From Reclinomonas americana ATCC 50394 (taxonomy: Eukaryota): a stretch of DNA of 35,122 nt. A program made the translations under genes and the position numbers. Shown here in pieces: positions 47 through 35,122 of this stretch. The DNA lies in assembly GCA_048213135.1 (NCBI GenBank), contig PS015039.1:101663-136784 (forward strand), in the 5' to 3' direction. The first letter of the stretch is position 1. Each line of letters begins with the position of its first letter. A model generated the notes under the pieces. It was not told the DNA's origin, made no database searches, and was given only the letters and a program-made list of their open reading frames with translations.

Positions 47-3000
47 GTGGGTCCCGTTTTGGTCAAGATCCGTGAGCGTGTGATCTTGTCGCAACTGGCG
101 TTGAGTGCCATGGGCACGTACGTCCCGGTTCGTGACGACAGCACGCGTACGCACTGCGCTGCGTGTATCGGTGAATCACGCTCATGGCCCGTGCGCACAC
201 AGACTGTTCGCTCTGCTCGCCCGTTGCAGCTGGATGCAGAGTCGCAACACCACTACTCAGCAAAAGAAACCGGTCCCATGGCGGAGCAATACAATAATGC
301 CTTTTGTCAGCTCTTTGTGGAGGATTCACGCTCGGAGGAGGAGCTGGGCTTGCGCCTCCGCTTCTCACTGGCAGACATGGACATGGCCATGGTGAAATGC
401 ATCTTTCACCACGCACTGCTGCAGTACCCAGAGTCGGCGTCCCTGCGCCTGCTGCAAGTGCAATACTTGGACGAAGTCGTGGATCGCCGACAGCAACATG
501 TGTTGGACGCACAGCTGGCATCCGTTGCGTACCACGCGCACACAACACAGGCACTCACAGGTGCAGAACGGCGTCGACTCACCTGCTTCCACAGTTGCTG
601 CGCGATGCACCGCCGACCAATGCCGTCGATTTCCGTTTCTTCATCCTGTCGTACCGACTGCGCAGTCTCGAGGCCGCAGCTGCCGACAATTCGCTGGAGT
701 TTTCCGTTGGCCAGCGACTCAGCCTCGCCAACCAGCTGCATGTACAGCTGTTGCACCTGATGGTCGAGTGCTGGTCTCTCAGCGCGGACGAATCAGGCAC
801 GGCAGACAAGAAGCGACTTGACGATGTGGTCGAGGACATTGGTGAGTTTGTGCACTTGTACGTCGCGCATGCACTCTCCATGACACTTGCCGCCGTCGAC
901 ACAGCTACGAACTCGACGCGTCTGAGCCGCATGTTCCGCTCCCTGCTGCGTGATGCTCCACACTCGTCACTGGTACTGCGGTCGTATTCCAAGTACCTGG
1001 ATGACATTGAACACGAGTTGCGTGTCTGCACACACCATACTACAACTGCAGCGACTGTGGTGTCTGACGCACAGGTGCACGCAGTGTGTACGCCTCACGC
1101 GCAGTGGCGCAGTACGCCGACTACATGGACGAAAACGTCGTCGAAGTAAGACGGCAGCGACGCTCACGCGCTCGGCGTGCAAGTCGGCACGATGCATCTG
1201 TGCTCACTCGCGAGTTACGCAATCCCACGTGATGAGAGCAGACGCCTTGAATGTGGTATTCATCCGCACCGTAATCAGTTGTTCTGGTACGACGCGTGAG
1301 CGGCGGAGCTCGACTCGCACGCTGAACAGCTCGCTGCCGAACTTGCAGTCCACTCCTCAGTCTTCGCCGATCAACCAAGCTGCCGTCGACGCCGACGACA
1401 ACAAGTCGCACCACCACGAGAGCAGCCCCGGTGACACAAAAGTCGCATTGTCACCTTCGGTCGCAGCCAATGGAGATAGTGACGACGACGATTGCACTGT
1501 GCAGCCAGCACGCGTACTTCCACCTGTGCGCACTCGCCGAGGACGGCCGGAGGCCACCCTGTGGGTTCCACCGCTGACTGTGACCACGCCCACTGTTCAG
1601 TCGCCACCACAAGCTGCTGCTTGCATCGAAGGTGTGACTGGTGTCGGCCGTGGTGCTGGCATCAGTGGCGAATGCGACGACGACGACGACGACAAGTGGC
1701 TCGCACAACACTTGCACCGACTGCCCGAGGTCCTTCTGGAGGCAAGCAGGGGTCACAATGTTGACGATAGTGACGATGACGACGAGGACGAAGACGAAGG
1801 TGGAGACGACGACAACCTGACTGCACTGGCCGGCCGCAAACAGAGCCTAGTGCCAGTCGGTGCATCGACACCGCTTCTGGCGGCACCTGGCGGGGTGCTC
1901 AGCCCAATTGCCACCATGGCCACTGCCGATGCCACTATCACTGTCACCACCACCACCACCACCGCCACCACAACCACCACCGCAGCAGCAAGCAGCAGCC
2001 CGCTCCACACCACCCTCATGAAACGGGACAGGGGCAGGAGTCTATTGGTGGACAACGCGGTGATGCGGCGACCAAGCTTTGATCTTGGTCGCATGCAGGG
2101 TGCTCCAGCGCAGAGGTGGACGCAGATTCGAGACAAGATGGCCCTCGGTGGCAGCCAGCCGGCCTCTGTGCAGGAACCGATATCGTTGCAGATGCTCAGT
2201 CGCCGCGAGTCCGGTCGCAGCATTGTCGACACATTTGTGGCCGTCCCTGCACGCTCCTCCTCGCTCAAGAGTATGCCTACTGTGAGCCCCCGCATCAACG
2301 GCCTGCTATTGCAATCACCGTCTGCCGCATTCAATGCCGACGGCGAGAACACCAGTGTGACGAGTGATGATGAATCATCCGACGACGACTCCGACGACGA
2401 CGAGCTGTCGCCGCTTGCCGTTCAAGGGCTTCGCAGAAATATGGGCAGCGGTACTGGTGCCGCCGGTGGTATCGGCAGTGCTGGCGGCCGTGGTGACGGA
2501 GCGCTTGACATTGACACCAGTGCTTCTGTGTCTACTGGGCTCGGTCGTGACTCTGGCGCCAGAGAGCTGTTTGCCGACGCCGACTACGGCGAGGTTCATG
2601 GCAGACACTACCGCCAAGGCAGTCGTGGCAACAGCAACATGTACGGATCCGCAGGCAATGCTGCTCCGTGGTCATTTGCGACACAGCGAGTTGCGTCGGT
2701 TACCACTGCCAGGGACTGTTGACATTGATGACACTCACGTGCACCTTGTGGGGCCGCAGAACCGGCAAGGCGCAACTGCACTGATGCCGGCCGTGCTGGC
2801 TGCGCAGCGCGACCAGATGCAGCAGGTGGATCTGAGGAACCGCCTGCTCTCAAAAGTCAACACTGCTCGCCTGCGTCTGCTGTTGTACACGGTATGTGTG
2901 AGGGTGCTGCGAGTGTCATGTGCACCAACAGACAGACGATCTCATCGCTGTTTGCAGCTCGGTCCTCTGTTGGTCGCTCTGGTAGCGGCTGTCGTGGTCT

Positions 3001-6000
3001 TTGTTGTGGCTTACTCGTCGGTGAACAAGGAGCTGTGCCTTGCCATCGAGATCACAGCCACGCAGGTCAAGATTGTTCCTGCGCACTACGCAAACTTCTT
3101 GTGGATGTACACGTGGAATGCTTATGGTCGTCTTGGTGAGTGGGGCACTCGTGTAATTGGGGTAATGCATTGTCGACACGTCTCACTCTCCGGTAGGCTT
3201 GTACTCCAACCTTGTCGGCAGTGTGGCCACTCTGGCCAGTGGGGCGATTGATACCGCATCGACTGTAGTGAAATCGTTTGGGGTCTACGTGGCCGCGTCT
3301 GGCGATCGAGTTGCGCACTTCGCTCTTGATGCTACCGCCACTGATGTTTTGCAACTGAAAAAAATTGTGTGCAGTTGTTCAGCATGATACAATCGTGGCG
3401 ACAGTACATGTACTCGCCTGATACGGCTCGAATCATCCTTGACATTCCAGTCGTCGTTACACACGCTGCAGGAAGCGTGCGTGACCACGCGTCAGTCACG
3501 ACGTCGAGCACCTTGTATTCATTTCTCGCCGAGCTGTCCGTGGTGTACAGCAACATGCTCTTGGTTCGCTGTCGCACTCATTCCTGTCTCTTGGTTTTGT
3601 TGATTTCTCATTTTGTCGGGTATTAGTGCCTGGTGCAAGGAGCACCAGTGGAACCGACAACGTGCGCCACGGCATTCCGCTTCTCAATGGACAACATGGA
3701 CGAGGTGACGCACGCTGTGCTGAATGCAACAATGTCGACGCGAACGGTATTACTACGACTGTCACCATCGCTGAGTGCTCATTACCCTGTGCTTACATTG
3801 TTTTGACGGCTGTTTTTTGTAGGATGTCTTGAGCGCAGCTCATTCGAGACTGATGACAATCGGAATTCTTGCCGCTTGTCTGCTGGTTCTGTTTGGTGTT
3901 CTGCTGGTGTTCGTAACGCTGCCGGTATACCGCAAAGTACTTCAAGAGAGGGAAATGTTGCGCGCAAGTGCTGTTTTGCGATTGATCTTCCCGACTTGTG
4001 CTCAATATATTGACAATGATAACGCAGCATCATGGACCTGTTCTCGGAGATCCCCGGCGCAGTGTTGCGACGCGTGTGTCGTCGGATTCGCAACAAGCTA
4101 ACTTCATTCGCTTCCGCGGGCCAGCTCGACCCCAACTTTAACGAAAGTGTGTTTACGGAGGGTCAGTGCGGTTCTGCCATCACATGGGTAGCACACTCGC
4201 TGTCGACATGTCTGCTAATGATCCGAGGGTGCACAGGATGTTGCGGAACTCGGTCGAGTTTGCGGAGTCAACTGCGGTGGGCTGTACTGATCACAGTTGT
4301 TTTGCTTGCTGCCTGCTTCGTTGGGTGGCTGCTTTTGGTGTACTCCTACAATGCTCACGAACGGATGCTGAGTGGTGACGCTCTGGCAACTGCGGTATGT
4401 GAATTGTGTCTTGTTCGTACTGCAATGACGACCACTGAAGCGGATCATCTGCTTGCATAGCATATCGATTTGCTGACATCGATGCTGGCAAACGATATTA
4501 TCCGACTTGCGTACGATACGAAAGCGGCGGAAGCTGATGTGCGGTGTGTGGCACTGTTTCTGACATTTGCAATACTCGTTTCTGCTTGAAGGGCTCAAAC
4601 ACTCGCAATATGTGCACACAGGGAAGACACTGCGGCCACTCTATCCTTAGCGCGGGCGGCGTGGGATCGCGTGATGTTTGGCAACGGCGAGCCATCGTCG
4701 AGCCTCCTGCACCGCAGTCCAGGATACGAGAGGGTCTGTGTATCTTCGCTCAGTTTGGCATGTTTTCTGCGCATTTTGCTGACTGTGCTAATGCATTCTT
4801 CAGTTATTCGTGGGCGAGTGCTGGCTGCCCACCCTGTCGCCTTGCACACCACTGCCTAACTTGGACACCACACTCCACACCGTCTTCTCACTGGCATCGT
4901 CGCTGATCCAGCGGAGTTCGATCCGTGGCACGGACCTCCTTGCTGTGCCGGAGTGGAATCCCTTAAGTTTGTGATTTTTCTCCCCTAACACACTGCATAA
5001 TCTGCCACCTTTACTCACGCACGTGTTTACGTGCATTTTCAGTTAACGCTATCATGCTCGAGCAACAGCAAACGGAGATGATGCTCGCCGAGACCATGGT
5101 GGTGCGTTTTCTGTTCGCAAGTGGTGCCAGTTTCAGAATACACGCACTCACTGTTCGCACGCAGCTGTACCAAAACACCACGACATGGCACATGACCCTC
5201 AGCATCGTTGCTTTGTGTGCGGCACTCTGCTTGCTTTTTCTTCTCTTCTGGTTTGTGTGGCGTCCCCTCATTGCCGAGCTCAGTGACATGGTGAGTGTTT
5301 GCTTGGGATGGTGCTCTTCCGTTGCGCTGGAGTTGACAGCTTCTCTCTCTCTCTCGCCAGATGCGCTACACGACAAATCTGTTGCTGCAACTGCCTCTGG
5401 CCGTCATCGACTCGGTACCACGAATTCACGCATATGTGGCTGACGACGCGCACACTCTGCGCAAAGACCTGGCCAAAGCCGTGGTAGAAAAGCATCAGAA
5501 GATGCTAACAGTTCTCAGCACTGCTGCCGACGGTTTCATGGAGTTTGACGAGCACGGCTGTGTTCGACAGCTCAACAAGGCAGCCGAAGTGCTGCTTGGA
5601 CTGCCTGCGACGCGCTTGCTGGGCGATGGGGTGCGAGAGAGTGCTACTACAAATGTTCCTCAGCAGCCCTGACTGACGTGCTTGCATGTTGTCTGACAAC
5701 CAGATGAAGCAAGTGTTCGACGAGCGCAGCCTGAACGAAATTCGTCTGGAGGTCCAGGAATTCCTCAAGAGTCGTGCGCCTTCTCGAGCATTCAAGCGGC
5801 AGGTTCGCGTGTTCGCAGTTGAGCTTACTGGGCGACACTTGCCTCACAGCCGATTTCAGATGACATGCATCCACTGGGACTCGTTTGTTTCGGATGCTGA
5901 TGCGTCTGTCTTGGATGCGGACACTCTCGCGGAGAGAGAGCTGTGGAATGACGATATTGACACGCAGCCGCACGTACAGTACACGAAGCCAAGATTCAGC

Positions 6001-7410
6001 ATGTTTCCTGTGTGGGTGAGTTGTATCTAGTCTCTACGCACAGGAAGTCAATCCACTGTGTATATGTGACGCTCACTGTGTTGCGCGACGTGGCAGATCT
6101 CGTTCCACTTCGGGTACATTGGTTCCACGCCAGTATTTACGTGTTTCTTCCACGACCGCACGAACGAACTCAAGCGGGAGCAGCAGCTGGAAGAGGAGAA
6201 GCTCAAGTCGCACGAACTGCTGCTGAACATTCTTCCGAGCCGAGTGGCAGTTCAGTTGCAAGTGCACGGCAATGATCGACCCATTGCCGAAATCCACGAG
6301 TATGCTTCAGTGCTGTTGCGTCTCCACTTGTTGCTGTCATGCTCGACTCTTGCGCCTTTGCGAAAAACTCATCGCGCCCTGTTCCGATAGGTTCCTTGAC
6401 ATTGTTGGTTGGTGTTCGCGTAATGTCGCACGAGCCGCGTATCGCTGTTGAGTTTCTCAACGCCGCTCCTTTCGCAGGTTTCACCGAGCTGTCCTCCAAC
6501 ATCTCATCCATTGAGCTTGTGGAACTGCTCGACACGCTGTTCTCCATGTTTGACGAAATCGCCGACGAACAAGAAGTCATCAAGGTCAAAACGATTGGCG
6601 ACTGTTATATGGCGTGCAGCGGTTTGCAGGCTGGTGACATTGGCAGCGCTGCCGAAGCGGCCAGGAACCTAGTAGAGGCCGCCATTGGGTTCATCACCAT
6701 TGCGTATGAAAATTTCATCTCGGTGAGAGCAAGAGACTAACCGCTGCCACAAGCCACAATGTACTCACAGTTTTTTTCACGTTGGGACGCAGGTTCGCGT
6801 GGGAATCCACACCGGGCCGGTCACAGCCGGTGTGATTGGTCGAAAACGCTTCCAATGGGACTTGTGGGGCGGTGAGTCACACTAATCGTCGCAGACGAAA
6901 GGTTTCCATGTTGTACTCACCTCGTTCCATGCACCAGACACTGTGTACATGGCGTCGAGCATGGAAAGCACCAGTGAGCCGATGCAGCTGCAAGTCAGTT
7001 CCGCCACCTACGAACTCGTTTGCTCCGACTATGCCTTCGAGGAGCGGCAGGTGCAAATCAAAGAGACGGACACGCAGACTGCTTACCTACTTACGGGTCG
7101 CATCGACAACGGAGTCGTCGTGAGTCTCTATGAGACTCCAGAGAAACAGCAGCAGCCGCAGCCGCCACCGCCACCACCATCTGTGCGCGGTCGTGCAGCA
7201 TCGCCGATCAGCATGTCGGGCTTCGGATCGCCGCAGTCTTTTGTTGCCACACCGTTGCACCAGAGCTCCCCACATCAATCGCAGCAGCAGCAGCAGCAGC
7301 AACAACAACAACAGCCACAGCAAATACCAGTTCCGCAGCCATCTCAACGCAACCTCTTGAGTGTGAGAGCACTAGAGGTATTCGCAAGTGACACCAATCA
7401 CCCGTGGTGA
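47..7410 (+). CDS. Multi-exon TmcB/TmcC-like membrane protein with PAS domain and C-terminal class III (adenylyl-type) cyclase domain; 5' end lies upstream of the window
   Basis: Spliced exons give TmcB-like helical repeats (AVDFRFFIL..., [29 protein letters not shown]), a low-complexity linker (1279-2689) and several hydrophobic TM segments (about 2960-3020, 3860-3920, 4280-4345, 5195-5260). Then PAS ([29 protein letters not shown]...FTCFFHDRT), coiled coil [18 protein letters not shown], and cyclase motifs [53 protein letters not shown]. Stop TGA at 7408-7410. Confidence 0.88.
6391..6407 (+). other. 17-nt microexon of the cyclase gene encoding (L)FLDIV(G), including the first metal-binding Asp
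   Basis: Flanked by ...CGATAG (6390) and GTTGGT (6408). Inclusion joins YASVL to GFTELSS in frame and restores the canonical motif. Confidence 0.85.
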
Positions 7411-7495
7411 TGTAACCATAATTAAAAAAACGTAGTACAACATTAGCAACTGCATCGACATCATCGGCATGCATTTTCCCTTGTCTGCTCGGCTG

Positions 7496-9395
7496 CTACA
7501 ACTGGAGCTGCCCCGATGGCTGGTTGGCCGCGTCGGAGAGATCGAGAGTAACGTGGTGACATCTGTGGAATCGTGAGCATGCGAGTGAGAAGAGCACGTG
7601 TTGCACGCACGCAGAAAAGATGAGCGGGTCTCCCACCTTCCGTACGTGTCCACCACGCCATACACCGGTCGTGTTACCACCACTCGTTCGTTGGCTATAG
7701 GCGCCAACAGTTGGCCGTTCACCACTGGCCTCACCACGTTGTCCGCGTACAGCCGGAGGCCCACCAGCGACCCTATCGCCCGTTCTTCAGAATCGCTGTA
7801 CGTGACGACACCGGGAACACCTGCGAGGTGCGTGTAGGCAGGAGTGAGGAGCGTGGCGACTTATAGACGAGCACACGCAAACGTCGTACCACTGCATGTG
7901 GACGGCACTTCAAACGTTTCTGGCGGTGCGTTGGTGAATCCGATTGACAGAGCACCACTCCAACCGCGTTGCATGTGGAGCACTCGCACCGTGAATTCGA
8001 CGTGAACCACATTCCCGCTCTCATCAGCCTCGCACAGCTCCTACGCATTTGACAAACACATGCAGTGGTGGTGTAAGCGATTGATTCTGCGGTCCCACGA
8101 TTTTTTCATGCCAGCTGCAGCACAATAACACAACTGGGAGCGGTTCCGCAATCATGGCCACCGAGTTCATGAACGGAGACGGTGACGCCTCCAGGCGACG
8201 GAGGTGAAGATTCTCTCCGGAGAGTCGTGCATTGGTTCCCTTCTTGGCGGGGTCGAAGAACAGCTGCGCCTTTAGCCGGTTGATAACTGTCACCGGCAGA
8301 AGAAAATGGTCAGCACAACTTGCAGCAGCACCTCGCAGTCGACGGCGCCACGAAACTCTTCATCGCATTCTCCACCGAGGGCGCCAGATCGGGGAACTCC
8401 TTCACGAGAGCAGTCATGTGGTCCTCGATGCCGAGATCACGCAGCGCGCGTGCATTGCGCTGCGTTTCTGTGTGGTTGCTGCGACGTCAGTGCACGACAC
8501 ACGAAGAGGGAGAGAAAAGCCCACCACACGCAGCTGCTGACAGCATTGTGCACGGCGCACACTGCCTCTCGTGCAATGTCCACTTGATGACACTGCAACA
8601 TGTCGAGCAGCGTGGCAAACACCGTGTCCACATCCGACAACCACGCTCGAACGTCGTCATCTGCTGAAGGTGAGTCTCCATCCAGGGGCGGACGCAAGAC
8701 AGCAGCCAAGACACACGTACCGTGCGTCAGGTTGCGAAGAATGGCGGCCGCGTGCACCCGCACCGCCACATCCGCCGACTCGCGCAGCACACGCAGTGTC
8801 ACCTCCAGCCCTCCGGCCTCCACAAAGTCGCCGACAGCCACGTGACACGCGGCAATCGCATTACGCACGGCTCCCATCAGCGGCGACAACAGCACAGAGG
8901 CACGAGGGGACGACGAGGAGCAGCAGGTCTCCAGAAGCCGCACCACGGCACTCGGACCATTCATCATGGCAAATGCGCATTTCGCTGGCTTGTTCTCTGC
9001 ACACACACACGCACATGATCAGCTGGGCCACCACCAAGCAGCAACCGGGGCACATGTACGCGCATACCATACAGTGTCACCCACAGTGCAACAGCAGCAG
9101 CCACACGTGGATCATCATCGTCACCACCACCACCACCTCTGACACTATCACTGCACAACACACTCAGCAGCACTCGCAGCAGATCATCCACATGCGCGGA
9201 TTCGCCTGCCAGCCTCAGCCGATCCTCCATGGCACCTGCGCACATACGCACATGCACACACAGTGAGTGTGAGAGTGAGTGCCGGAAAAAACTCCTTCGT
9301 CTCTCCCTCTCATAACTTGTGAGCATGGCCTGTGTGAATCGCTGCAGCGACTGTGCGCTGCGGTCCACCACTGCCTTTACGCACTCTTCCAACAT
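7496..9395 (-). CDS. ARM/HEAT-repeat protein with a C-terminal Neuralized homology repeat (NHR) domain; 8 exons
   Basis: ARM-like segments (FVEAGGLEVTLRVLRES...HAAAILRNL; IAREAVCAVHNAV). Spliced C-terminus LFFDPAKKGTNARLSGENLHLRR...FMNSVAMIAEPLP|...FTVRVLHMQRGWSGALSIGFTNAPP...VVNGQLL...PVYGVVDTYGR|CHHVTL matches the NHR pattern. Stop TAG at 7496-7498. The start ATG at 9395 is tentative. Confidence 0.75.
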
Positions 9396-9454
9396 GGCAC
9401 AGACAGACAGGGACAGGAGGAGCACGCAGGACACTAGTGTATTCCACTTTTGTC
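9396..9454. promoter_or_regulatory. Putative very short bidirectional intergenic region between the ARM-NHR gene and Gemin5
   Basis: Only 59 nt separate the divergent ATGs at 9395 (-) and 9455 (+). Confidence 0.4.
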
Positions 9455-11240
9455 ATGCGGCGTCTGCACGCACAGCGATGCCTGCTGCCTTCGCCCAACT
9501 GGTACACCTTTGCAGGCGCCGACTACGTCGCGTTTGCCGATGATGAGCACGTGGAAGGCGTGTGCACAACAACTTGCTTTTTTTCTGGATGTTTCCTCAC
9601 TCACACTTTTGCTTCGTTGTGCAGTGTACTGTGCGGATGACTTGTCTGGTGGTGGTGGTGGTGGTGGCGAAGGAGGAGAAGGGGGAGGTGCAGTGTCGGA
9701 GGATCCAGTGACGGGCTTGTTTGCATTTGCCAGTCGCAACACGGTGTTTGTGTTGCCTGTGTGTCAGCGAATGAGTGATGGCGCTCGTCGGGTGTGTTGC
9801 ACTCTCGCTCTGTATGTGTTTGCTAAAGTGGGCGTGCGATTCCCTCGGTGCTGATCATGCATGAATTGCATTTTCTTGTTGTAGGGCACTGCTGAAGGAC
9901 GTGCGCCGCGTGTGCAGCACTACTTTGGGCCACTGTGGCGGGAACTCGAGGGCCACAGCAATCGAGTCAACAGCGTGGCTTTGTTTCGCGATGCAGAGGT
10001 CGGGGCGCGTCGCATTGTTGGTGACTTGTGTGCCTCATCTCATCTCGTTCTTGTGTGTGCGTGTGTGCTGCAGGGCGTGATCCGGTGCATTACGGCGTCG
10101 GCCGACAAGAGTTTGCGGTGCTTCGATGTGGAGTCGTCGCACTGCGAGCGTGTGCTGCAGTCGTCGAGCAAGTCTGAGTTTCAGGCCATGTCTCGCTCGC
10201 CGGTGACGCCGCAGGTGGTGGTGGCCGGATGCAAGAATGGTGCGTTGACGGTGTGGAACTGTCTCACCGGCGACGGGCACACCTTGAATCCGGATCCCAG
10301 CGGATCGATCTGTTCGGTGGCCTGCTCACCTGTGCATGAAACCATTGTGGCCGTCGGCTACACCAGTGGCACCGTGCTGATTGTCGACACGCGGACTGGC
10401 GCCGTGCCGCACAAGTTGTTCAACCACAAAGATGAGGTGCAGGGCTTGTGTTGGCGACCGCGTGGCAGCGGGCCTCCGGCGGCCATGTCCGACGACATGA
10501 TGTTGGTGTCGGGCAGCCGCGAAAAGTCGATTCACGTGTACCGCTTGTCCACCCGTTCCCGGCGACCGGATCGGGCCTCGAGTGGAGGTACGAGTCGGCT
10601 TGTGTTCTTGTTCTCCAGGCGCGCGCGCTCACATGTGCTGTCGATTGCGAATCAGGGTCGTGGAGGAATCCGCCGGCCGCGACCACTGAAGTTGCGTCGA
10701 CTTTGCCGCAAGTGCATCACATTCAGCTTCGCGAACCCCATCTCATGCGCACTCCTTGTTTCTCTTGCTCGCATGCATAGATCCTGACGGCGGAGGAGTG
10801 GTGCGCGGCCAGCTCTGTCGACGACGTGCAGCACAGCATTGTGCCCAAGTCGTTGCAGAAAGGCACGCGCACAATCAATAGCTCCGCGTGTATGTGTGTG
10901 CGTGTGTGTGCGTGTGCTCACGGACGACGTCGCTGCAGGCAAAGCACTCACGGAGGCGCAAAAGTCGCGGCTGTGGATCACAGTGCAGTGGGTCCCCGAC
11001 ACGAACTCGTTTGTCAGCTCGGGTCTCATGTTGCGTCCCCTTGTGGTGTTTTTCGGACTTTTCCGGTGGATCTCACCGCACGGTGTTCCCTCCCACAGGG
11101 GTGACGTGTACCTGTGGGACGTTGGGCGTCGCAGACCGGTGCCGTACTCGAGTCCGCACTCGCGTTGTGTGTTTCACTTGGCGGCAGATGCGCGATGGAA
11201 CAAGCTGCTTACTGTGTCCATGGATCGAACGGTGTGCATT

Positions 11241-11315
<75 letters not shown>

Positions 11316-11565
11316 TACGTCGCGTAGTCGTTCTTCGTCGTCGTACGGTACCGGACCGAAGGGCGGTAGTTACGGTTACGGTACGAGCGAGACGAGGGAC
11401 GAGGAGGACGCACGCGACGGACTACGTAGTGTTACTTCCTTACGTTNNNNNNNNNNNNNNNNNNNNGGTCCGGACGACGTAGTCGGCGGACGTACGGTAC
11501 GAACGACGTACGTCGTACTTCGTTGTCGTACGTACGTAGTACGTACGGTACGGTGTCGTACGTCG

Positions 11566-11640
<75 letters not shown>

Positions 11641-16858: not shown

Positions 16859-17074
16859 CTACGACCACTCCAGCGGGCCCATGTAGTCTGATTCGTCTCC
16901 ATAGCCGAGAGTGTCGCTGCTGCCCCTGTGAGACGACGACAAGTGCATCTGCACGCACACAGGAAGAAATTGAGTCAGGAAATGCGCAAGAAGAAAAAAT
17001 GGTTGCAACGCAAACGCACCCGTAGTGAAGGCAGAACTGGCGGTGCCTGCGGTTGCATCATGGCCGCTGGCATG

Positions 17075-17107
<33 letters not shown>

Positions 17108-20643: not shown

Positions 20644-21116
20644 GCCACTGGAGCTGTGCAAGAGAGAGAGAGAGAGAGAGAGCGTGTGTGTGTGTGAGCG
20701 ATTGTGTGTGTGCGTGTGTGAGAGAGAGCGTGTGTGTGAGTGTGTGATTCACCAAATCGGCCAAGCGCTATAGTCGATGCGGTGTCGAGTGCATGCAACC
20801 TCTTCTGGTGGGCGTGTCGGCAGTGAGTCTGGCGTGGCGGAGCGGGGATGACGCGTCAACGTATATATGTGTGTATGCGTGTGGTTGCCAATAAGCGACT
20901 TGGTCTTGTCTCTCGACAATCACACTTTTTTTCGGCGAACAATAAAAACACTGAAGTTAGACAGCAAATTCGTGAATCGCGTTCGGATGCGGTTCTTGAT
21001 ACGAAATCAGGGGCCGGTCAGGGGGTTGATCCTGTCAGCGAAGGCACCCTCGGTGGCCGCGATGCAGTGCATCATATATCAGATTGGTATACTGCTCTGC
21101 AACACACACACACAAA

Positions 21117-24100: not shown

Positions 24101-24386
24101 AGAAGCGCGGCAGGTTATCCACGAGTGCATCCACCGAGCGAGTCATGCCAGACAACTTTATGAACGAAAGAATAAGAAGGCTGTGGGGGACGAGGTGACT
24201 GCGGAGGAGAGCACCTGTGTCTGCATGGTCTCACAGACGCGTGAGTTGGCCACAAAGTCGCCACGGTGAGTCACCGCCAGCTCATCCATCTCCTCCTGCA
24301 ATCGCTTGCGTTCATTCTCCAGTCGCACAGGCTCGAGTTCCAAGTCGGCCAGACTGATAAGCGTGTGTGAGAGTGAGTGAGAGCAT

Positions 24387-24432
<46 letters not shown>

Positions 24433-24770
24433 GTGTGCACCTCAGCGAGGCAATCGTCGCGCGTAGAGTTCATATTGCTGGTCACAGGGAGTGTGAGTGC
24501 GTGTGCGTGTGTNNNNNNNNNNNNNNNNNNNNATATGAGAGAGCACAGTGGACGCAACAATGTCGTACTCTGTATGTGTGTGTGTGTGTGGCAGAGTGTG
24601 AGAGTGAGAGACAAGAGTGTGCGCGCAACAGAGTCACCTTTTGTGTATGGATCACGCTGTGAGTGGTGCACGGCATGTGAGTGAACAGTGTGGCTATTTG
24701 CAGCAGCTCACACACACAGACGCACCTGTAAGGAGGTGAGAGGCAGAAGCAGCTCGGCAATGTCGTCCAT
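21117..24770 (-). CDS. COG8: Conserved oligomeric Golgi complex subunit 8 (Dor1 family); three exons lie on an inverted contig (21504-22050)
   Basis: Spliced translation includes SLADLELEPVRLENERKRL, LTELLEVPQLMDTCVRNQLY, LCGPLELPTCLK|LVNQLRK, LIFLKCR, LLEQCVYCATALARIGTDF and HSLAVCANGFLEALNDLR, all typical of COG8. Start ATG at 24770 (MDDIAELLL). Stop at 21117, or about 21072 if a last intron is spliced. Confidence 0.88.
22735..22950. repeat. Two diverged direct repeats of about 77 bp inside an unusually long purine-rich COG8 intron
   Basis: 22735-22811 and 22873-22950 share ...AGATGCTGAGGAATATGAAGA...TGCAGCACTGATGCAGGAAGAGA. Confidence 0.85.
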
Positions 24771-24839
24771 GTGAGTGAGAAGAAAAACGATTTTGAGATG
24801 TCCTGCTCAGTGTTGGCGATGGTTTGCAGGGTGTAAGAG

Positions 24840-25731
24840 ATGGCCACTGTGCAGGTGGTGAAGACTACGAACGTGCGTTGCGCCAAGGCGCGCACAGGAG
24901 AGAAGCAACGAACGTCGAGAACAATGTCGACGTCGGCTGGTCGCACTCTCAGAGCGCCTGCAAAGTCGAGCGTGCATGCTCACTACAGGCAACATGCTTA
25001 TGTAGACTAGCGGATCAGAACCGCAGCAGCTGTTATGTCTCGCACGCGACGTCGGGAAACGTCGCGCGCAGTGGCGTGTTCCTCGCTCGCTCGCTCTCTG
25101 CGTTACACGTACTCAAGCAGAGGTACAGGTACACGTCCCACTCTGCGCACAAGCGACGCACCTTGCAAACAACGACGGACATCACAACAACACGACAGGA
25201 CAACCATGGAATCGATGCGAGGTGATCGCACCCTCCCTCTCTCAAACTACTCTCCTCCTCTGCTCACGTGTATGTGCCAGGACGTATGGTGCGCATGCGC
25301 ATTGCCTATCAAGAAGGCGTGGCAGAGACCGCGCGATTCATTGACTCTGTTACGTGACACACGCTGACTGAGAGCCGCGCCGAGTGTCTCACATACGCGC
25401 GCGCACACACAGATGCCGCACTTTGACGCACAAGCAGAGGTAATAGATGAACACATGCAGCCTTTGTGCGTTTGTGCGACTCACTCGTGCGCGCGCAGGA
25501 GCTGGAGGAGTTTTTGCGTCACAGCCCGGCCACACCTGTCAAGTTCATCGGGTCGCCCAAGTTGCGCAACACACACACACACACTGTGACAGAGACAGAG
25601 ACACACACGGGCACTCAATTCTCTCTCTCTCTCCGCACAGGCGACTTCACCAGCAGCAGCCTTCGACACCTGCCGGACACGATCTCAATGCCTCGTTTGA
25701 CTCGTCGCCCATGCAGCAGAGACCCGCGTGA
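24840..25731 (+). CDS. Small multi-exon hypothetical protein
   Basis: Phase-consistent GT-AG chain: ...TTMESMR|GRMVRMRIAYQEGVAETARFIDS|MPHFDAQAE|ELEEFLRHSPATPVKFIGSPK|RLHQQQ...QQRPA*. The first exons are uncertain and I recognise no family. Confidence 0.55.
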
Positions 25732-25828
25732 CGACATGCGAGGCAAAATGTATTAACTTTCTCTCTCTCTGTTCAACAACACTACACACAAAATCAAGCA
25801 GTCGACTTGCGCGCGCACGGGGGTGCGC

Positions 25829-26346
25829 TTACTGCCGCGGAGGCAGGTACATGGGATCGGAGCACTTTTGAGACTCCTCAATGATGAGCCCGACGCACTC
25901 GGTCCACTGTCAAGGGAGTGAGACGACACGAGGCGAGGAAAGAGACAGCGTGCATGCACAAGAACGCAACGTTCATGTTGGCATCGACGCAGACCTCGAC
26001 CGAGTCGAGCATCAGCTGATCGTTGAACTTGGTGCAGCTCAGTGCCGGCGCGTAGCCCGTCTTGGCCTTGAGCGCGCTGATTACAGCGTCCACAGACACC
26101 GCTACACGTACGTACAATGAGAGGATGCACAAGAGGCCGCAAGACAACAACAACAACAAACGCAACGAGTGTCGTTACTGGCCACAATGCCCGCATCCTG
26201 CAGCGCCTGCTCCGCATTGAGGCTCTCACGCAGCCGCAGCGTGCCCTGGAAGAACGTCTGCTCGCTGGTGATGCTCGGCGCCTGTCCATTCATCGCACAC
26301 GTGCCGTGCTTCTCTGTGATCACACACAAAGATACAAATAGGTGAG

Positions 26347-26380
<34 letters not shown>

Positions 26381-27393
26381 CAGAGGCTCGGAAACACGGC
26401 AACAATCAGTTCNNNNNNNNNNNNNNNNNNNNNNNNNNNNNNNNNNNNNNNNNNNNNNNNNNNNNNNNNNNNNNNNNNNNNNNNNNNNNNNNNNNNNNNN
26501 NNNNNNNNNNNNNNNNNNNNNNNNNNNNNNNNNNNNNNNNNNNNNNNNNNNNNNNNNNNNNNNNNNNNNNNNNNNNNNNNNNNNNNNNNNNNNNNNNNNN
26601 NNNNNNNNNNNNNNNNNNNNNNNNNNNNNNNNNNNNNNNNNNNNTGCACAGAACAAGTCATGAGCTTCCTCTCACAGAACTGCATGGCATTTAACAGTTA
26701 CGTCACCAGCAGTGCCAGTGTTCTGCAGGTTGGACCACTCGGCCAGCAGCTGGTTGTAAATGCCGGCAATCTATGCAGCAGAGAGATGCAAAGATTCTCA
26801 GCCAACCCTGTGAACGACCCCCCAGAGGCACAAAGAAGAGGTTAACCTCCGAGTAGTTGAACGGGTAGTCCTTGTTGCAGAAGGACGGGCTGTGTGTGCA
26901 CGCGCAAGTGTCAGAGAGTGTGTGTGACAGAGTGCGAGAGAGGGGAGTTGCGCGCAACTATGACCCATCATTGCGGTTCGGCCACAGACCTAGCACGCAC
27001 ACACACAGTGAGCAACACACAGAGCACAACGCACGCGCGAGCAAGTATGTATACCATGCAAGTTGAATGTTCTGCGCGAGGTGCATGAGCCACTGATGCA
27101 CTTGTGCACAAAAAAAAGCATCTCTTTCACATACTCACGTCGAGTTGCTCGGCAGCTGATAGTTGGCAGCGAGGCACACAGTCGGCGCATACCGGTCCAC
27201 CAGGATCATATAATCCCACGACGACTGAGAGAGAGTCAGTCGGAGGAACTTTGTGTGTGCGTGAGTGAGTGTGAGAGAACGCAACATCGTCGCGCACGCC
27301 CCACTTTTGGGCGGTTCCGCGCAGCCGCACACCAGTGGCTCCCAGCGCCAACACGCTCACCACAAGCAGAGCAGCAACAAAGGCAACGCGCAT
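25829..27393 (-). CDS. Secreted/lysosomal ribonuclease T2 family protein; one exon probably lost in gap 26413-26644
   Basis: Signal peptide MRVAFVAALLVVSVLALG, WDYMILV, CAS-I TFNLH|GLWPNRNDGSYPSFC, CAS-II KHGTC, and C-terminal PALSC...LDSVEVCVD. Stop TAA at 25829-25831. Confidence 0.9.
27055..27071 (-). other. 17-nt microexon of RNase T2 encoding TFNLH(G), including the CAS-I catalytic His
   Basis: CGCGCAG acceptor and GTATAC donor. Inclusion joins NST to GLWPN in frame. Confidence 0.75.
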
Positions 27394-27490
27394 GAGCAAA
27401 GAAAAGCGTGTGTTTGAGGACTATTGAGGACAGTGGCTCGCTGGCGCGAAAAACACGCGCTATCTTTGTGTGTGGTGTGTGTGAGCTCTC
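27394..27490. promoter_or_regulatory. Putative bidirectional promoter between RNase T2 and the BEACH gene
   Basis: 97 nt between the divergent ATGs; contains TGGCGCGAAAAA. Confidence 0.45.
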
Positions 27491-30400
27491 ATGAGTCGTC
27501 GCAACACTGCGTCGTCGAGCAGTGGCGGTGCTGCTGCGCCCGGCTCCTCTGTTGCAGCAGAGTTGCGTGACAGAGAGGAAGAGAGAGTGAGATGGCGCGC
27601 AATGACGCACTCTTTTGCTTTCTCTCTGGTCTCATGTGTGCGTGTGCGTGCGTGTGTTTCCCTCTCCCTCTCTGTGCGCCCGTCTTGCTTTGTTGTTGCT
27701 GCTTGCTTTCGCGGCGAGGTCGTGTGGAATTGAGCCTGATGCACTTGTCACAGGAATGAGTACAGATTACGTGAGCTGTGGGCGGAGACCAGTCGGCTGC
27801 CTGCCAACAGCAAAGTCGCGTTCCATGCGCTCTCTCACTCTCTGTCTTTCTCTCTCTCGCTCACCACCCAGTGGTCACGCAGGATCGTGCCAAGAAGTTG
27901 CTGGAGATTCTCGACTTGTTCCCCAGTGTGTGTCGCTCGTGTAGCGATCGCACGTTTCTGTACATGTTGCGTCCTCTCATGCCTGTCTGTGTGTGACGTA
28001 CACACAGACTCATCTCGCGCGCGTAGCTTTGGAGACGGAGTGCAATTCGCCACCACATGCGCCACACGATTCACGCGCGAGGTGGAGAGTCGAATCGGGT
28101 CGCATGCCGAGTCGCCGCAATCGCAGCTGGCCATGGTCAGCTGGTTGTTGGGCTCCGATGGCGTCGGCAGCCTGCTGCTGTCCACGATGGTGGTGCTGTC
28201 GCGTGATATGCGTCTGTTGAAGGAGTTGGTCGACAATCACGTGCCGTCGGTGCTCGTCACCTTGCTGCGCACGATGCTGGTGTTGCCCGGTGACTTGGTC
28301 GCCGCGTGTGCCTCTAGTCGATTCCCCGGTGCGTCCCGTCCACTCCTCCCCTCTCTGAGTGGTGCAGATGGGCATGCTCACACGCACGCACACAGATCCG
28401 AGCACGCAGGTGGCACTCATTGTGCAGGAGACGGAAACCATCCTCACACAGTCGCTCTCGGTGCCGTCGATTTTCCAAGACCTCTCGCGACACGACAGCA
28501 TCTCGGGCCTGTGGCAAGTGTTTCTGTCGTCAGAGAAGAAGTCATCGACCCACTCGGCTGGTGCCGCGTCGCGCGTGTTGGTCGCCGTCGGGCGCAGTCG
28601 TATGATGCAACCGAATGTGGTCGATGCGATTCGCCGCAAGGTTCTCCGCGCCTTGTTATTGTTGTTGTTGCTACGGCACCTGGCTGTGACTCACGCGCCG
28701 CGGTGATGCGCAGTCGTTTGTGGAGGTGTTCTTGACTCGTGTCGACCAAGCGCGTGCCAACTGGGAGAACGCCTTGTATGCGCTGCAGGCCCTGATTGGC
28801 GTCGTCAGGGTGCGTTCCCTCATTCATGTATGTGGAGGCTTGTGTGTGCATGAGTGCGTCCTGACTACGTTCGTCTGCCGGCAGGGCACGATTCGCATCA
28901 ATTCATCGCTGCTCAACGAGTTCCTCAACAAGGACGGTTTCAATGTGGTGAAGCGTCTCATTTTGCGACTGGAGAATGACTTGCAGCTGGACGATCCGGA
29001 GAGCGATGGTTTCCGCATCATGGTGAGGCGGGCGAGCATTCGCCACTCTTTGCGCAGGCCGCTCACGAGTGTTGGTGTGGCTCGTGCGCACAGAATTCGT
29101 TCTTGGACCAGGCGGTGGAGTTGTCGTTTTTTGGCGAAAGTGAACTCGATCCGAGTATGACGGTCGATAGCACGGCATTCATCTCGGCTGGTGGAGGTAG
29201 TGTGCATTTTGTGAAGCGGTTGTGCCGCTGCAACTTTGTGTGACACTTGTGTCTCGTGTGTGTGTGCCAGAACGCATTCGGAGTCTGGAGGGCTTCCAGA
29301 CACTGTGCAGCCTGTTCATGGAGTCGAAAAAGATGGAGACACAGACGCTGATTCTGGAAAAGATGATTCACCTGTTCGCCTCGAACGGCTGGAACTACTT
29401 TATCGTGCATCATCTGCACGTGCTGACGCTGATTATCCGTGACTTGAACCGGTTCCACGATCAAGTGCAGGTCTGCATGTTTTTTCGTAGTGCAAGTGTG
29501 GCGTGACTGTTTGAGTGCATGCTGACGCTCTCGCGGGTGGCGCAGATGTCGGTGATCAAGATTGTCGAGTACATTGTCACGGGTCTCAATTTCGTACCCG
29601 AGGAGGAACTCAGCACCATGCTGCTCCTCTTTATGGGTGCGTGCCCGTCTGTTTTGTGATGTCCGCATTTCCCTTGTCGTCGTTGCTCATCACACGCGTG
29701 CGTGCACGTAGTCCCCATTTCGTCGACTCTGAGTGCACGCGTCTTCAACACCTTCCTCAAGCTGCTCAACTTTGACGATCAATTCCGCTTTGTGCTACGC
29801 GATGCCGGTCTCATTGAGGTGACGCTGACACTGCTGCGTGGCTACGACGACCAGCAGCAGCGACCAACTGCCGACATGAGCGAGCGGCCAGTGGCACACG
29901 CCTCAGTGGTGCGTGTTCCCTCCCTGTTCACGTCCGGGTGGTGGTGGTGGCTATTGAGAATGGCTGATTCGTACCTTGCGTGCAGGTGCCACTGATGCTC
30001 GACATGCTGGCGACCATGATTGAGTTTGCGCCCGACATTGGCAAGGCCTTCCGTGAAGTCGGAGGCGTGACCGTGGTGTCGGGATTGCTCAAGTACCCGC
30101 AGGTGTGTTCCGCCATTGAGTTACGCCGAAGCCACCTTTTTGCACTGCAATGACGCACACGTTCTCTACAGTTCCGACCAAACTGTCTGCGCGTCTTGTC
30201 CAAGCTCATGGCCGACAATGAGCAGCTGGAGCAAACGGACATTGTGCAGCTCATTGAGCAGTTGCAGATGAACCAGGATCTGACACTGAAGCGTGACGTG
30301 TTTTTGGGGGTGCGAAAGATGATTGTCGCCAACCCGAACATCAAGGACGCGTTCAGGGAACACGGTTCGTGTGTCTCTTGCGAGAGAGGAGACAGTATGT

Positions 30401-33400
30401 GCGACAGTTGGTTGACCGCCGAACACAGAGGGCTTTGCGGCCGCGCTGACCAGCATCATGAGCCTCTCCAGTGTGGTCTCACAAGCCATTGCCAACAGCG
30501 ATGACGTGGTGCTGGACCAGGCGGTGGAGATGTTTGCGTCATTGGCGCGGTGCCTCGGAGCTGCACTGTCGGGTCACATGCGCAATCAGATGTACCTGGA
30601 GACGAGTTGCGTGGTTTCGCTGACGGCTCTAATTGCTCCACCTGCTCAATTTTCCGTTTTATCTGCGCAAGGCGAATCGGCCTTTGCCGATGCCGTGTCG
30701 TGCACGTGCCTCTTCAGCACATCGCGTCGTGATCACGCCATCCAGGCGCTCCTCGACATGGTCCTCGATCAAGACGTATCGACGGCGTTTGCCACGGTCG
30801 CCGGCTTCAAGCTTGCCGACGATCATGAAGGTGCGTTTCTGGTGCAGGAAAAAGGAGAACTTGTGCCGGTATCGTCACTGATCCGTGCCTATTCCTTTGC
30901 TCTGCAGTGCGCAACGAGGGCACTCTGCGACTCTTCCTGAAGATCATGCAAGAGCAAGACGAGGCGATGAAGCATCGCCTTGTGCAGGTGTTTTTGCTGC
31001 TGGCCAACAACCGCTGGAACTTGCACATGTTTGCTCGTGTGGGCATGGTCGACTTCCTCGTGTTTGTCTTTGCCGAGGCACTCAAGGTGGCGGAGAGCGA
31101 CGTGGCGCGCGACGTGCTGCGTCTCATTCAGCTGATCGGCTCGCACTCGTTCTCGATTTCTGGCTTCAAGAAGTACCTGGCGCTGATGAAGGACGACGCT
31201 CACTCGATCGAGCTGCTGCGCACACTCGTCAGCATTGGCGACGACAATGACGGCACCTCGTTTGTCAATGTTGCGCGCGCGCACCACCTGTTTTTCCAAA
31301 TCGTGGACGATGCGTGTGCTGACTTGACGAATTATCTATTTACTAGCTGGAGCCAAAGGACTGGCTTCTGATTCCCGATCTCGGCAGCCGAGTGTGGCCA
31401 CCCAAGAATGGCTACACGTACACGTGTTGGGTGTCGTACTCGCACCGCTTCAATCAATCCGTAACCGAGTTTCGTGAGACCCTCAGTGAGTGCTGACGAC
31501 CTGGTTACTCACTCGCTTGTGCGCGCAGCGGCGACCGCTCGGCAACGAGCCCTGTGGCCACCACGGTGCAGGATCCGTTCCAGAATGTGGTGCTGTTGAG
31601 GCTCTTCTCCAACGACGGGCGTTCGTATCTCGAGGTCTTTCTGTCTGTGTGCGTGCGTGTTGTCAAATATGTTTCTTTGCCTCTGATTGTCGTCGTCGTG
31701 CAGGTGGCGCTCTCGCCCAGTGGCCACATCGACATTATGACAAACGTGCGACAGGAGGCTCACCGCTTCCCGGGGTTGTCGCTGGAGGAGAACACGTGGC
31801 ACCACGTGGCGTTGACGCACGCATACAACCGCATTCAGAGCTCGGTGGTCACGCTGTATCTGGACGGGCAGTTTGTGGCCACTGGCAAGGTCACGTACCC
31901 GGCGTCCTCCAATTCCGCTCTCTCGGCGTACATTGGTGAGCGCTGTCGCTGTAGGGGGTTTTGCCACTCTTCCTCTGCTTGGTCTCACCGCGACGCTCCA
32001 CAGCTCTGCGCAAGTCCGTCGGGCGTGCTCACATGGATGTCTCGTGCAAGTTCGGCCCGTGTCTGCTGCTGGAAGACTGCCTGTCGGGCGCCAATGTTGC
32101 CTCGGTGTACGCGGCTGGACCACGGTACGTCGGCTACCTGCAAGGCCGACTGGAGGAGACACCGAGTGCCGTCGACCCGATTCTCACACCGGGCATGCTG
32201 GAGCTCGCACAACACATGGAGCTCGGTAGTGAGCAGTCGCACTTTGCCACTTCGTTCCACCAGATGATGGCGGTAGCGAGGCCGTTGGTGCCGCCGGAGA
32301 AGATCATCTTTGCCTTCAACAGCCGCTACGTGGGTACTCGGCAGGATGAGCGCGCTGCTGGCTCTTCACGGTTTGATTCGCCTACTACCTCACGTTTACT
32401 CTGTTTGGTTCGCTGATTCTCTTTTTTTGAGTCAGTGAGGGCCTCCAGTCGTTCTTGATGAACATGGCATCGGCTCAGCCGCCCCAGCTCCAAGCTTTGC
32501 TGGAGGGCCGTGCACACATCTGCTCCGCTGTGTCGTTGTCCATGTTGGTGCGCACCGCGCACGGCCTGATTGCGTCGCTGTACTTTGTCGATCGAGCCAA
32601 GGTGAGATCGTGTTGCGGTGCGATCTGTGTGCGCCCCTTTTGTTGACCTGCCTAACACAATGATGGGGTGCAGACGCGTGAGGCATTGGATCTGGCTCTC
32701 GGCTTCTTGTGCAACCTGCTCGACTCGTCGTACAGCAACGCCGACGAGTTTGCCCGCATGCACGGCTACGAGATTCTCGGCAACCTGTTGCGCAAGCAGA
32801 GTTACCTGTTCACCGAGAACACGTTGACCAAGATTTTCCGCTTGGTCCTCGGCGTCACTGAACGGCGGCGTGAGGTGCGGGGAAAATGAGAGACGCCGCT
32901 GTTCATGTTTCTGGCCGCTGAATTTGCAGGTCTGTGTCTGCGCAGATTGTCGGCAACATGTACGCCGTGCGCTACCTGCTGCTGGACAGCTCCCTGTGGA
33001 AGTTGACGAGTCCCGAATTCCAGTGCCATCTGTACGATCGTGTGCTAGCCATGGTGCTGCGAAGCCCGTTTGGCACCATCAATGCTGTGCGCTTGCGTCG
33101 ACAGCGTTGCGTTCTACCACCCATTTTGTTGTTGCTGTTGTGGTTGTGTTTTCGTTTTTTGTGCTGACTGATGCGCGTTATGCATCGTGTAGGCATTGTG
33201 GAGCACGTGCTGAGCGTGCTCAGTTCGGGAGTCACGATTGAGCTCGCACAGCATGCCATTGCCGTGTTGCAGGCCGTACTGAGTCGCAATTTGGCCAACG
33301 ACGACGTGGAGGTTTGGAGTGTCACCGCTATTCTCCCTCATCATTATCTCAAGTGCACTCATCCTTTCTCGCCATCTCCTATCTGGTAGGCGGTGTGGAA

Positions 33401-35122
33401 TTTCTTGTTGACCACCGTGTCGAGCTCGGCCGCCGGCAACGAGGATGTGGTGGCCAGAGGTGAGTTGGAGCATTATCATTCGTCGACACACGTTGTCACT
33501 CACATGTATGCACTGGACACTGCAGTTGTATCGTCCACCAGTGTGCGGAGGCGTCCGTCCATGGCCGTCCGCTCTCGTTGCGTGTGGCACCATAGTTTAA
33601 TGTCCTTCTGGTGTTCGCGGCGCTGACGCACACACGCGCGCTCCCCGTGTCTACAGATTTTGTGCAGACACACACTGACATTATCCGCAATCTGGTGCTC
33701 CAAATGCTGCTCAACTTGGTCCACGGTCCGGAGCGTGATCGCATCTTACCGGCCCTCGCGCATGTTGCGTTTGTACATTCTCCGCTGGTTTTTAACAAAA
33801 ATGCTGATAGTGGTGGTGGGGCGTGCGACAGACGGCGGAACCGTCGTGGTTCTTCTTGCTGATCGACAAGCGGCTGCACCCGGTGTCCGTGTCGCTGACG
33901 TTCCGCATTCTCACGGAGCTCATGATCCACCAACCTTCGTACCTTACCTCGTTCCGCAACGTGTTTGGGTGCGTCCGCTGTGCAGTGTAGTGATGTAGAG
34001 TGCTGGAGTTCGTGACTGAATTGGTTGAGATGGGCGGCAGCTTTGACATTCTGGCCGACGCCCTGGAGACGTTTGCCAACCAGGACGAAATTTACCACAC
34101 GCTCTTTTGCTTGGCGCTGGGTCATGACACTCGAAAGACGGCCGATCATCGGCAGCTGACCTTGGAGGACCTGGTGGAGGACTTTGATGTTGCGTGCACG
34201 CGCATGCATGCATGCCTTTTCGTGTGGATGCACAGATGACGCTGACGCGTTTGCTTTGTTTTGGACAGGGTCAGCACAACCGTGTGTATTGCCGCGAGGC
34301 ACTCAGCACCCTTCTGCAAGTTCTGCGCAGCCACTGCACCACGGACCACCACAGTTTCTTGTGGCCGCCGATCAACACGCGCAGATACTTTGAGGACGTG
34401 GACGCGGCCGCCAGAAAGGTGCGAGACAACAGAATTACGCTTGTGTTTTGCCGTTCCTCACTTGCGGTGCAGGAGGCCAAGAAAATGGTGGTCCCGCGGC
34501 CAGTTAGCCGACGCTGGGCACTGCTCCGAAATGTGGTCGCGGCGGTGTTTGCCTTGCGCTCTCTGCTGTTGCGTCGGTGGAGCTTGTGTTCTCCGATGAG
34601 ATGTGACGCTCATTGTGGTGTTTGCGGCACAGAACCAAACGCGCGGACTTGGGCATGCTGTCGCCCGGCTCGCCGCCGTCCTCCATCTTCGCCACCACTC
34701 TGTTCGGCTCGTCCCTCGCACAGCGTCCGAGTGAGCTTTCACCATCTCCGGCTCCCGATGACGATGTGTTTGGGTGGGCGCCGGAGGGAGGCGATCCGCA
34801 GCCCCCGCTCCGAACCGGAGCTGTCAACGAGGCGACATTGCGCTCACTCCGCTACGGCTCCCTCAACACCACGCTCGTGCAATTCGTTCTCTGGCTCTTC
34901 CGGCACAGTGAGGAGGTGAAGACGGCGTGCAGAAAACCTGCATTCCTCGAGTTGGTGGTGGAGGTGAGTGCGGCGCGCAGTCATGGCGTTGGATGTGAAC
35001 AAAATACTGACCTGGTGGCAGCTCCTCTTTGCGCGCAACAATGTGGTCGCTCGGCCTCACGAGTTATCTCGTCGTTCGTCGGTGGCTCGCTCGGTGTGTA
35101 TGCAAATTGGGTTCTTGCACGT
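27491..35122 (+). CDS. N-terminal part of a large BEACH-domain protein (WDFY3/Alfy/LvsA-like); ARM-like solenoid plus ConA/LamG-like domain; continues beyond the window
   Basis: FNTFLKLLNFDDQFRFVLRDAGLIEV, KDAFREHG, then ConA-like motifs WPPKNGYTYTCWV, WHHVALTH, TLYLDGQ, YAAGPRYVG and PEKIIF, and EFARMHGYEILGNLL. The BEACH domain itself is not in the window. Confidence 0.8.

Follow-up and report, generated by a model that had tools for sequence, protein, structure and literature searches.

Predicted introns in a 35,122-base piece of a nuclear scaffold of Reclinomonas americana ATCC 50394 (contig PS015039.1, positions 101,663-136,784; hereafter the window) have donor sites of two classes that differ in the last base of the upstream exon. 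All evidence on these classes is drawn from this single window, which contains five N gaps, has a G+C content of about 57% and is dense with short introns, and the introns are computational predictions. Sorting the 125 introns that are free of N, we defined a shifted class by T at +3, no G at +5 and G at +6; its donors mostly read GTTGCGT or GTTGCGC. We found that G at -1 is absent from this class (0/32) as opposed to 48/77 of the ordinary donors, which have G at +5 (Fisher test, P-value = 6e-11); among the other 16 N-free introns, five have G at -1. Within the window, this division into two classes is real and very strong. The best available reading of the GTTGCG class, to which we give about an even chance of being right, is a shifted register of U1 small nuclear RNA (snRNA) and of U6, in which pairing would move one base downstream and cleavage would stay at GT.

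Exon base -1 and donor class

The association was also found among the 83 high-confidence introns, that is, those for which forbidding the donor costs the local parse at least 2.5 nats and whose length is up to 130 nt: G precedes 0/26 shifted donors versus 37/49 donors with G at +5. In this subset all 40 donors with G at -1 fall outside the shifted class, and 26 of the 43 without it fall inside. A control parse that had no donor model and scored GT and GC donors alike gave 0/25 versus 37/61 and recovered 17 of 25 GTTGCG donors; its coding, intron-body, branch and acceptor models were still those trained on an earlier parse. Split by intron phase, the counts for shifted and +5G donors are 0/12 versus 30/41 (phase 0), 0/9 versus 14/25 (phase 1) and 0/11 versus 4/11 (phase 2). 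By these counts, between roughly a quarter and a third of introns belong to the shifted class (32 of 125, and 26 of 83 at high confidence).

The motif GTTGCG occurs 54 times over both strands. Twenty-five copies are predicted donors, preceded by T (12), A (7) or C (6) and never by G; G precedes three of the 29 non-donor copies. For the heptamer GTTGCGT, 19 of 20 copies are predicted donors on the sense strand, and the remaining one, antisense to an adenylate cyclase gene (see below), is the sole copy preceded by G. Donors of the shifted class vary far less in sequence than ordinary ones. Donors of the form GTG(C or A)G follow G in 25/35 cases, and non-donor copies of this motif and of GTTCG do so in 15-19%; 11 of these 35 donors are GTGAG, and 10 of the 11 follow G.

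A preliminary description of this DNA had held that ordinary donors mostly follow G, which is borne out for GTGCGT (12/18), GTGAGT (6/7) and GTTCG (5/5) and not for GTGTG (6/16). GTTCG donors have T at +3 and G at +5, and all five follow G; therefore the determinant is the position of the conserved G rather than the T at +3. The description had further claimed that GTTNNG donors never follow G. This stands for the shifted class as defined here, with one literal exception outside it, gag/GTTTGGA (33312..33389, plus strand; 6.6 nats when forbidden; slashes mark exon-intron junctions), which has G at +5 and is therefore placed in the ordinary register. The sense strands contain 14 G/GTTNHG sites (nine intronic and five exonic), none of which is followed by a credible branch site and acceptor.

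Intron calling and the introns of the shifted class

Introns were called with a Viterbi gene finder that combined a 3-periodic Markov coding model, an intron-body model, branch and acceptor matrices, an intron length term and a check for stops in codons split by introns. Donors were scored at intronic positions +3 to +9 only, and exon bases were never scored. Early rounds (codon-only and flat-signal) gave poor parses. One training round was seeded by a donor regular expression written after reading the sequence, with GTTGCG included, and the finder was retrained afterwards. A single position-weight donor matrix blurred both classes, lowering the number of plus-strand GTTGCG donors from 19 to 12, and a first-order donor model kept them apart. 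The final parse has 127 introns (87 on the plus and 40 on the minus strand), of which 125 are clear of N gaps. The confidence of each intron is the local parse loss when its donor is forbidden, and the values in nats below give this cost. The six examples of the preliminary description (2690, 3957, 6315, 10691, 31270 and 34189) are all GTTGCG donors with the exon bases it gave.

GTTGCG introns:
524..594, plus strand, tcc/GTTGCGT, 7.9 nats
1017..1084, plus strand, cga/GTTGCGT, 5.8 nats
2690..2759, plus strand, cga/GTTGCGT, 8.9 nats
3310..3374, plus strand, cga/GTTGCGC, 7.5 nats
3957..4027, plus strand, aat/GTTGCGC, 5.7 nats
6315..6390, plus strand, gct/GTTGCGT, 2.2 nats; followed by a 17-nt micro-exon (6391-6407)
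10691..10780, plus strand, gaa/GTTGCGT, 4.4 nats
11030..11098, plus strand, cat/GTTGCGT, 7.2 nats; 69 nt, in frame and stop-free
13368..13427, plus strand, ctc/GTTGCGT, 3.2 nats; in-phase c/GTGCGTG 9 nt downstream
25561..25640, plus strand, caa/GTTGCGC, 5.4 nats
27562..27787, plus strand, aga/GTTGCGT, 0.7 nats; low confidence, 5' end of a gene
27966..28026, plus strand, cat/GTTGCGT, 5.2 nats
30606..30671, plus strand, cga/GTTGCGT, 3.9 nats; AAG acceptor, 66 nt, in frame
31270..31346, plus strand, aat/GTTGCGC, 8.8 nats; matches of P0001 and P0003 end here
33106..33192, plus strand, agc/GTTGCGT, 9.0 nats
33577..33656, plus strand, ctc/GTTGCGT, 7.2 nats
33764..33831, plus strand, cat/GTTGCGT, 8.9 nats
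34189..34268, plus strand, gat/GTTGCGT, 9.6 nats
34568..34632, plus strand, gct/GTTGCGT, 3.1 nats
27356..27505, minus strand, agt/GTTGCGA, 5.0 nats; doubtful, overlapping 5' ends of two gene models
27225..27285, minus strand, gat/GTTGCGT, 4.5 nats
26102..26166, minus strand, ctc/GTTGCGT, 7.8 nats
25907..25970, minus strand, aac/GTTGCGT, 8.3 nats
24568..24629, minus strand, tct/GTTGCGC, 0.6 nats; low confidence
24354..24558, minus strand, att/GTTGCGT, 0.9 nats; low confidence, spans an N gap and is left out of the class counts

Other introns of the shifted class:
14281..14339, plus strand, tgt/GCTTCGT (GC donor)
25349..25498, plus strand, tct/GTTACGT
31469..31528, plus strand, cga/GTTTCGT, 1.5 nats
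23204..23270, minus strand, acc/GTTGTGT
23064..23126, minus strand, caa/GTTACGG
9236..9316, minus strand, caa/GTTATGA
8287..8356, minus strand, aga/GTTTCGT
8041..8134, minus strand, cca/GTTGTGT

Two GC-AG introns are predicted in the window. The donor at 14281 (t/GCTTCGT) fits the shifted class and that at 9558 (g/GCGTGTG) fits the ordinary one.

Homology at single junctions

Two GTTGCG junctions could be compared with known or related proteins. Removal of 6315-6390 and 6408-6477 leaves the 17-nt micro-exon 6391-6407, and the product reads ...ASVL-FLDIV-GFTELS, a region corresponding to the motif with which class III cyclases usually start; the exon that follows the micro-exon aligns to Pfam Guanylate_cyc from profile position 19. 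The micro-exon, which encodes FLDIV of the cyclase catalytic motif, thus has a GTTGCG intron upstream of it and a GTTGGT intron downstream. Another very short exon, predicted at 5279-5290 (12 nt), is doubtful.

At the second junction, two open reading frames (ORFs) in genomic DNA of distant relatives, P0001 and P0003, match exon 30910-31269 to its last residues. Past the exon end they continue with unrelated sequence that starts V-C and must be their intron. The position of the 31270 intron is therefore shared and old, with a different donor in the relatives; V-C implies GTNTGY and not GTTGCG. A check of Pfam continuity across other junctions was limited by the single short exons, most of which are too short to score.

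Anatomy of the two intron classes

Beyond the donor, the two classes are alike. Intron lengths do not differ (Mann-Whitney test, P-value = 0.82), the branch motifs CTCAC, CTGAC and CTCAT lie 10-35 nt from the acceptor in both classes (distance, P-value = 0.90), and acceptor signals and base composition are alike. We found no significant class difference at exonic positions other than -1. Phase 0 introns are less frequent in the GTTGCG class (9/24 versus 24/40 ordinary introns). An all-against-all blastn comparison of the 125 intron bodies gave 194 sub-threshold hits; the first 30 of them are 13-19 nt long, low-complexity or (GT)n/(CT)n, and none pairs two GTTGCG introns. Both classes thus appear to be ordinary GT-AG spliceosomal introns.

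Within the donor the two consensus sequences are out of step by one base. At +7 the GTTGCG class (T18, C5, A1; n = 24) mirrors position +6 of the ordinary class (T in 28/40), and its position +8 mirrors ordinary +7, both being G-rich. Reading frames point to cleavage at GT, as GT-AG boundaries leave long frames open in 32/32 cases of the shifted class. We rejected a cut at G/TT, which would break the frames unless the following exon begins with G, and we also rejected T insertion into G/GTGCGT as the origin of the class, which would leave G at -1.

Proposed pairing with U1 in a shifted register

Moved by one base, N/GTTGCGT equals G/GTGCGT at six of seven positions. The canonical 5' end of U1 snRNA is ACUUACCU, with ACUUACCUG as the canonical stretch within positions 3-11. 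In the ordinary class the motif G/GU(G or U)(C, A or U)GU straddles the junction, and its anchors, an exonic G at -1 and an intronic G at +5, would pair with C9 and C4 of canonical U1. In the second class, H/GUUGCGU and in a few introns H/GUUNNGU, the core UGCGU lies one base deeper in the intron. The first G of the intron would then stand in for the missing exonic one, and the U at +2 would be mismatched opposite C8 of U1. U1, and later the ACAGAG box of U6, which also reads the GU at +5/+6, would dock one base downstream relative to the cut, and cleavage would still occur before the only available GU. In the GC donor at 14281, C replaces the U opposite the mismatched position.

We infer the shift of U1 and U6 pairing from the donor sequences. 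The preliminary description had likewise proposed that recognition is shifted by one, and the six-of-seven alignment, the mirroring of ordinary +6 by +7 and the lack of an exonic G where the intronic one would substitute for it agree with this, although a pure shift does not explain every observation. Duplexes modelled with canonical U1, from which the U1 of this organism may differ, reach -8.9 kcal/mol for G/GUGCGU and -2.3 kcal/mol for GUGCGU without G at -1. For GUUGCGU sites without G at -1, the shifted register is the best of three (-0.7 to +0.8 kcal/mol versus +2.7 canonical and +1.5 bulged).

Several points weigh against the shifted register. Its modelled duplex for non-G GUUGCGU sites is at about 0 kcal/mol, and G/GUUGCGU would reach -5.1 kcal/mol in a bulged register; simple pairing therefore predicts that G at -1 should help. 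By the same values, the compensation of the missing exonic G by the extra base, as suggested in the preliminary description, is not supported in a thermodynamic sense. GTTGAG occurs 17 times in the window and is never a donor. In a pure shift, position -1 of the shifted class should resemble position -2 of ordinary donors, where G is found in 24/77 as against 0/32 (P-value = 0.005), so the complete absence of G is not accounted for. All introns were predicted by a finder trained on the window, whose first-round regular expression included GTTGCG, and scans of metagenomes found no related locus. A plain shift thus leaves three things unexplained, namely the near-zero pairing with canonical U1, the lack of GTTGAG donors and the contrast between -1 and ordinary -2. 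On these grounds a U1 with a 5' end adapted to UGCGU, a position-8 variant able to pair with GUU, or a further factor is conceivable.

The absence of G has also to be set against its background. G is scarce before GTT anyway (16% of non-donor GTT). With intron phase taken into account, G would be expected by neutral background before 6.0 of the 32 sites under an exonic GTT null and before 3.5 under an exonic GTTG null, and the probability of observing no G is 0.001 and 0.022, respectively; for 24 sites under the GTTG null it is 0.064. It is certain that the shifted class is not enriched for G at -1, and active avoidance of G is moderately supported. This shortfall of G against the neutral background is a further point that a shifted register leaves unexplained.

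Alternative explanations

The low background gives some weight to the view that no special register exists, that GTTGCGT is read by another factor (a protein, or U6/U5 alone) and that the exon base is simply unconstrained. G at -1 of non-donor GTTGCG is as rare as 3/29, and the GTTG-null probabilities given above also speak for this view. Such a factor would leave the exact one-base offset of the UGCGU core unexplained and fails to explain why none of the 40 high-confidence donors that follow G belongs to the shifted class, and we regard it as rather unlikely. Alternatively, the usual pairing at G+1/U+2 could be kept with one U at +2/+3 bulged and the rest as in GTGCGT. The displacement of the intronic core would be the same, and this register, with an extra U after GU and the intronic consensus displaced by one base, is known in human (Roca et al. 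2012, via PMC4856993), where Table 3 of the latter paper lists it for 68 sites. A bulge would leave C9 of U1 free for an exonic G and so benefit from it; enrichment of G at -1 is predicted, and 0/32 is observed versus 48/77. The bulged register is therefore disfavoured. Its most stable modelled form, G/GUUGCGU, never occurs among the donors, none of the 14 G/GTTNHG sites is donor-like, and we consider it quite unlikely. A changed or second U1 snRNA is another candidate, with a 5' end complementary to UGCGU (for example ACGCA for ACUUA) or with a C8A variant that pairs perfectly with GUU; in the latter case the GUUGCGU introns would have a recognition RNA of their own. The weak pairing of canonical U1 at shifted sites speaks for it, as do the rigidity of the class (GCG in 24/32, no GTTGAG) and the ordinary donors, of which GTGCGT is the commonest; in the high-confidence set, all six GTGCG(T) donors that follow a base other than G read exactly GTGCGT. 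Set against this, the 5' end of U1 is, to our knowledge, almost invariant across eukaryotes, and an Rfam scan of the window for snRNA genes gave no matches. Micromonas favours AG/GTGCGT too, and no such claim is made in the text passages of the report on it (PMC3879977). On balance we find a changed U1 unlikely. In a more elaborate form it would amount to a second donor code, in which a U1 variant (C8A and/or a GC-adapted 5' end, for example) would pair perfectly with GUUGCGU and serve at least a quarter of introns, those preceded by an exon that cannot have G as its last base; G at -1 would be selected against, as it would draw ordinary U1 into a conflicting register. We offer this as a rather doubtful conjecture.

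A separate origin or machinery would make the class a mobile intron family (introners) or a diverged minor-spliceosome class. Like U12-type introns, the class has a rigid 5' motif, no exonic consensus or need for an exonic G, and fewer phase-0 introns. Unlike them (RTATCCTT donor, TCCTTAAC branch near the acceptor), it has a GTTGCGY donor with the branch site and acceptor of ordinary introns, and neither U12-type motif is present. Intron bodies are dissimilar except for microsatellites among the first 30 of 194 blastn hits inspected, and the 31270 intron lies where the ORFs of distant relatives also stop matching, a position shared with them. The distinct origin raised in the preliminary description thus finds nothing shared beyond the donor; it is largely refuted in this window, and we hold it to be extremely improbable. 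An artefact of intron calling, or chance, might be suspected on the grounds that the finder was self-trained on 35 kb and that one or more further in-phase GTs lie close to 25/32 sites. The strand asymmetry of GTTGCGT (19:1), the recovery of 17/25 GTTGCG donors without a donor model, the homology at 6315 and 31270 and P-values of about 1e-8 to 1e-10 make this explanation very improbable.

Comparison with known splice-site systems

Sites read in a shifted register are so far known from human alone, where they are rare, unlike the class described here with its quarter to a third of introns. At such human 5' splice sites the U1 base pairs all move by one position and cleavage stays at GU (PMC4856993; review PMC9311317), which suppressor U1 experiments proved at some sites; they were reported by Roca and Krainer in 2009, as described in Tan et al. 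2016 (PMC4856993). The test oligo ACA/GUCAAGUAUA in Table 2 of that paper has no G at -1. The parallel with the shifted class is close in these respects: the helix would be moved by one base, the first G of the intron would replace the exonic G, and the cut would stay at GU. The window class differs in that its core UGCGU pairs poorly with canonical U1.

Two classes of 5' splice site set by LUC7 proteins have been described (bioRxiv 10.1101/2022.12.07.519539). There too, one donor group has its consensus on the exon side and the other on the intron side. As far as that account goes, the LUC7 classes form a continuum of strength in one register, whereas in the window the core has moved by one base and the difference at -1 is all-or-none. 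Canonical introns of Micromonas have an AG/GTGCGT donor and an NCTGAC branch (PMC3879977), and the ordinary class of the window shares this donor, its branch motif being similar. Unlike in the window, where intron density is far above that of Micromonas, a GTTGCG class is not mentioned in the text passages of that report, whose donor logos stand in the supplement. A literature search on GTTGCG/GUUGCG donors, shifted register and GTGCGT donors found no such class described, supplementary donor logos and lists of human sites being outside its scope.

Genes and other features of the window

The gene models of the window are as follows.

1-7410, plus strand, receptor-type adenylate cyclase gene (Pfam Guanylate_cyc, E = 3.6e-16)
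9455-11369 and 11467-16403, plus strand, WD40 protein gene in two models
27392 to the window end, plus strand, neurobeachin-like protein gene (PF20425, PF13385)
Minus strand, four further genes

The WD40 gene was parsed as two models because of the N gap at 11447-11466. Around it, at 11240-11640, two long (GT)n runs lie on either side of the gap, with adjoining low-complexity CGTACG-like words; this sequence is probably a gap-fill or assembly artefact, and the introns predicted at 11247 and 11568 are unreliable. The neurobeachin-like gene on the plus strand and a minus-strand gene at 25.8-27.6 kb have predicted 5' ends that overlap at 27390-27640. Both models are uncertain there, as are the GTTGCG introns at 27562 (plus) and 27505 (minus). 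A likely candidate intron of 75 nt at 33460-33534 (gag/GTGAGT, CTCAC branch, CAG acceptor) was called coding because it is in frame and stop-free; introns of length 3n like this one are under-called by the finder. With G at -1 the candidate fits the ordinary class.

Word-index searches of annotated proteins gave no match for the window proteins. An exhaustive protein search of a representative library gave four matches, the best being a 173-aa ORF with 54% identity, and in the ESM Atlas only generic armadillo-like clusters were matched.

Implications

With one donor matrix for all introns, gene finders will get many introns of this DNA wrong. Non-canonical U1 registers make up a small fraction of human splice sites and have been proven site by site. 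If a shifted register is indeed used at a quarter or more of introns, all-or-none on the last exon base, the donors described here would be a natural large-scale system of this kind. It could reveal what determines where the cut is made if U1 and U6 bind out of register, and it could show exon coding constraints shaping the choice of donor.

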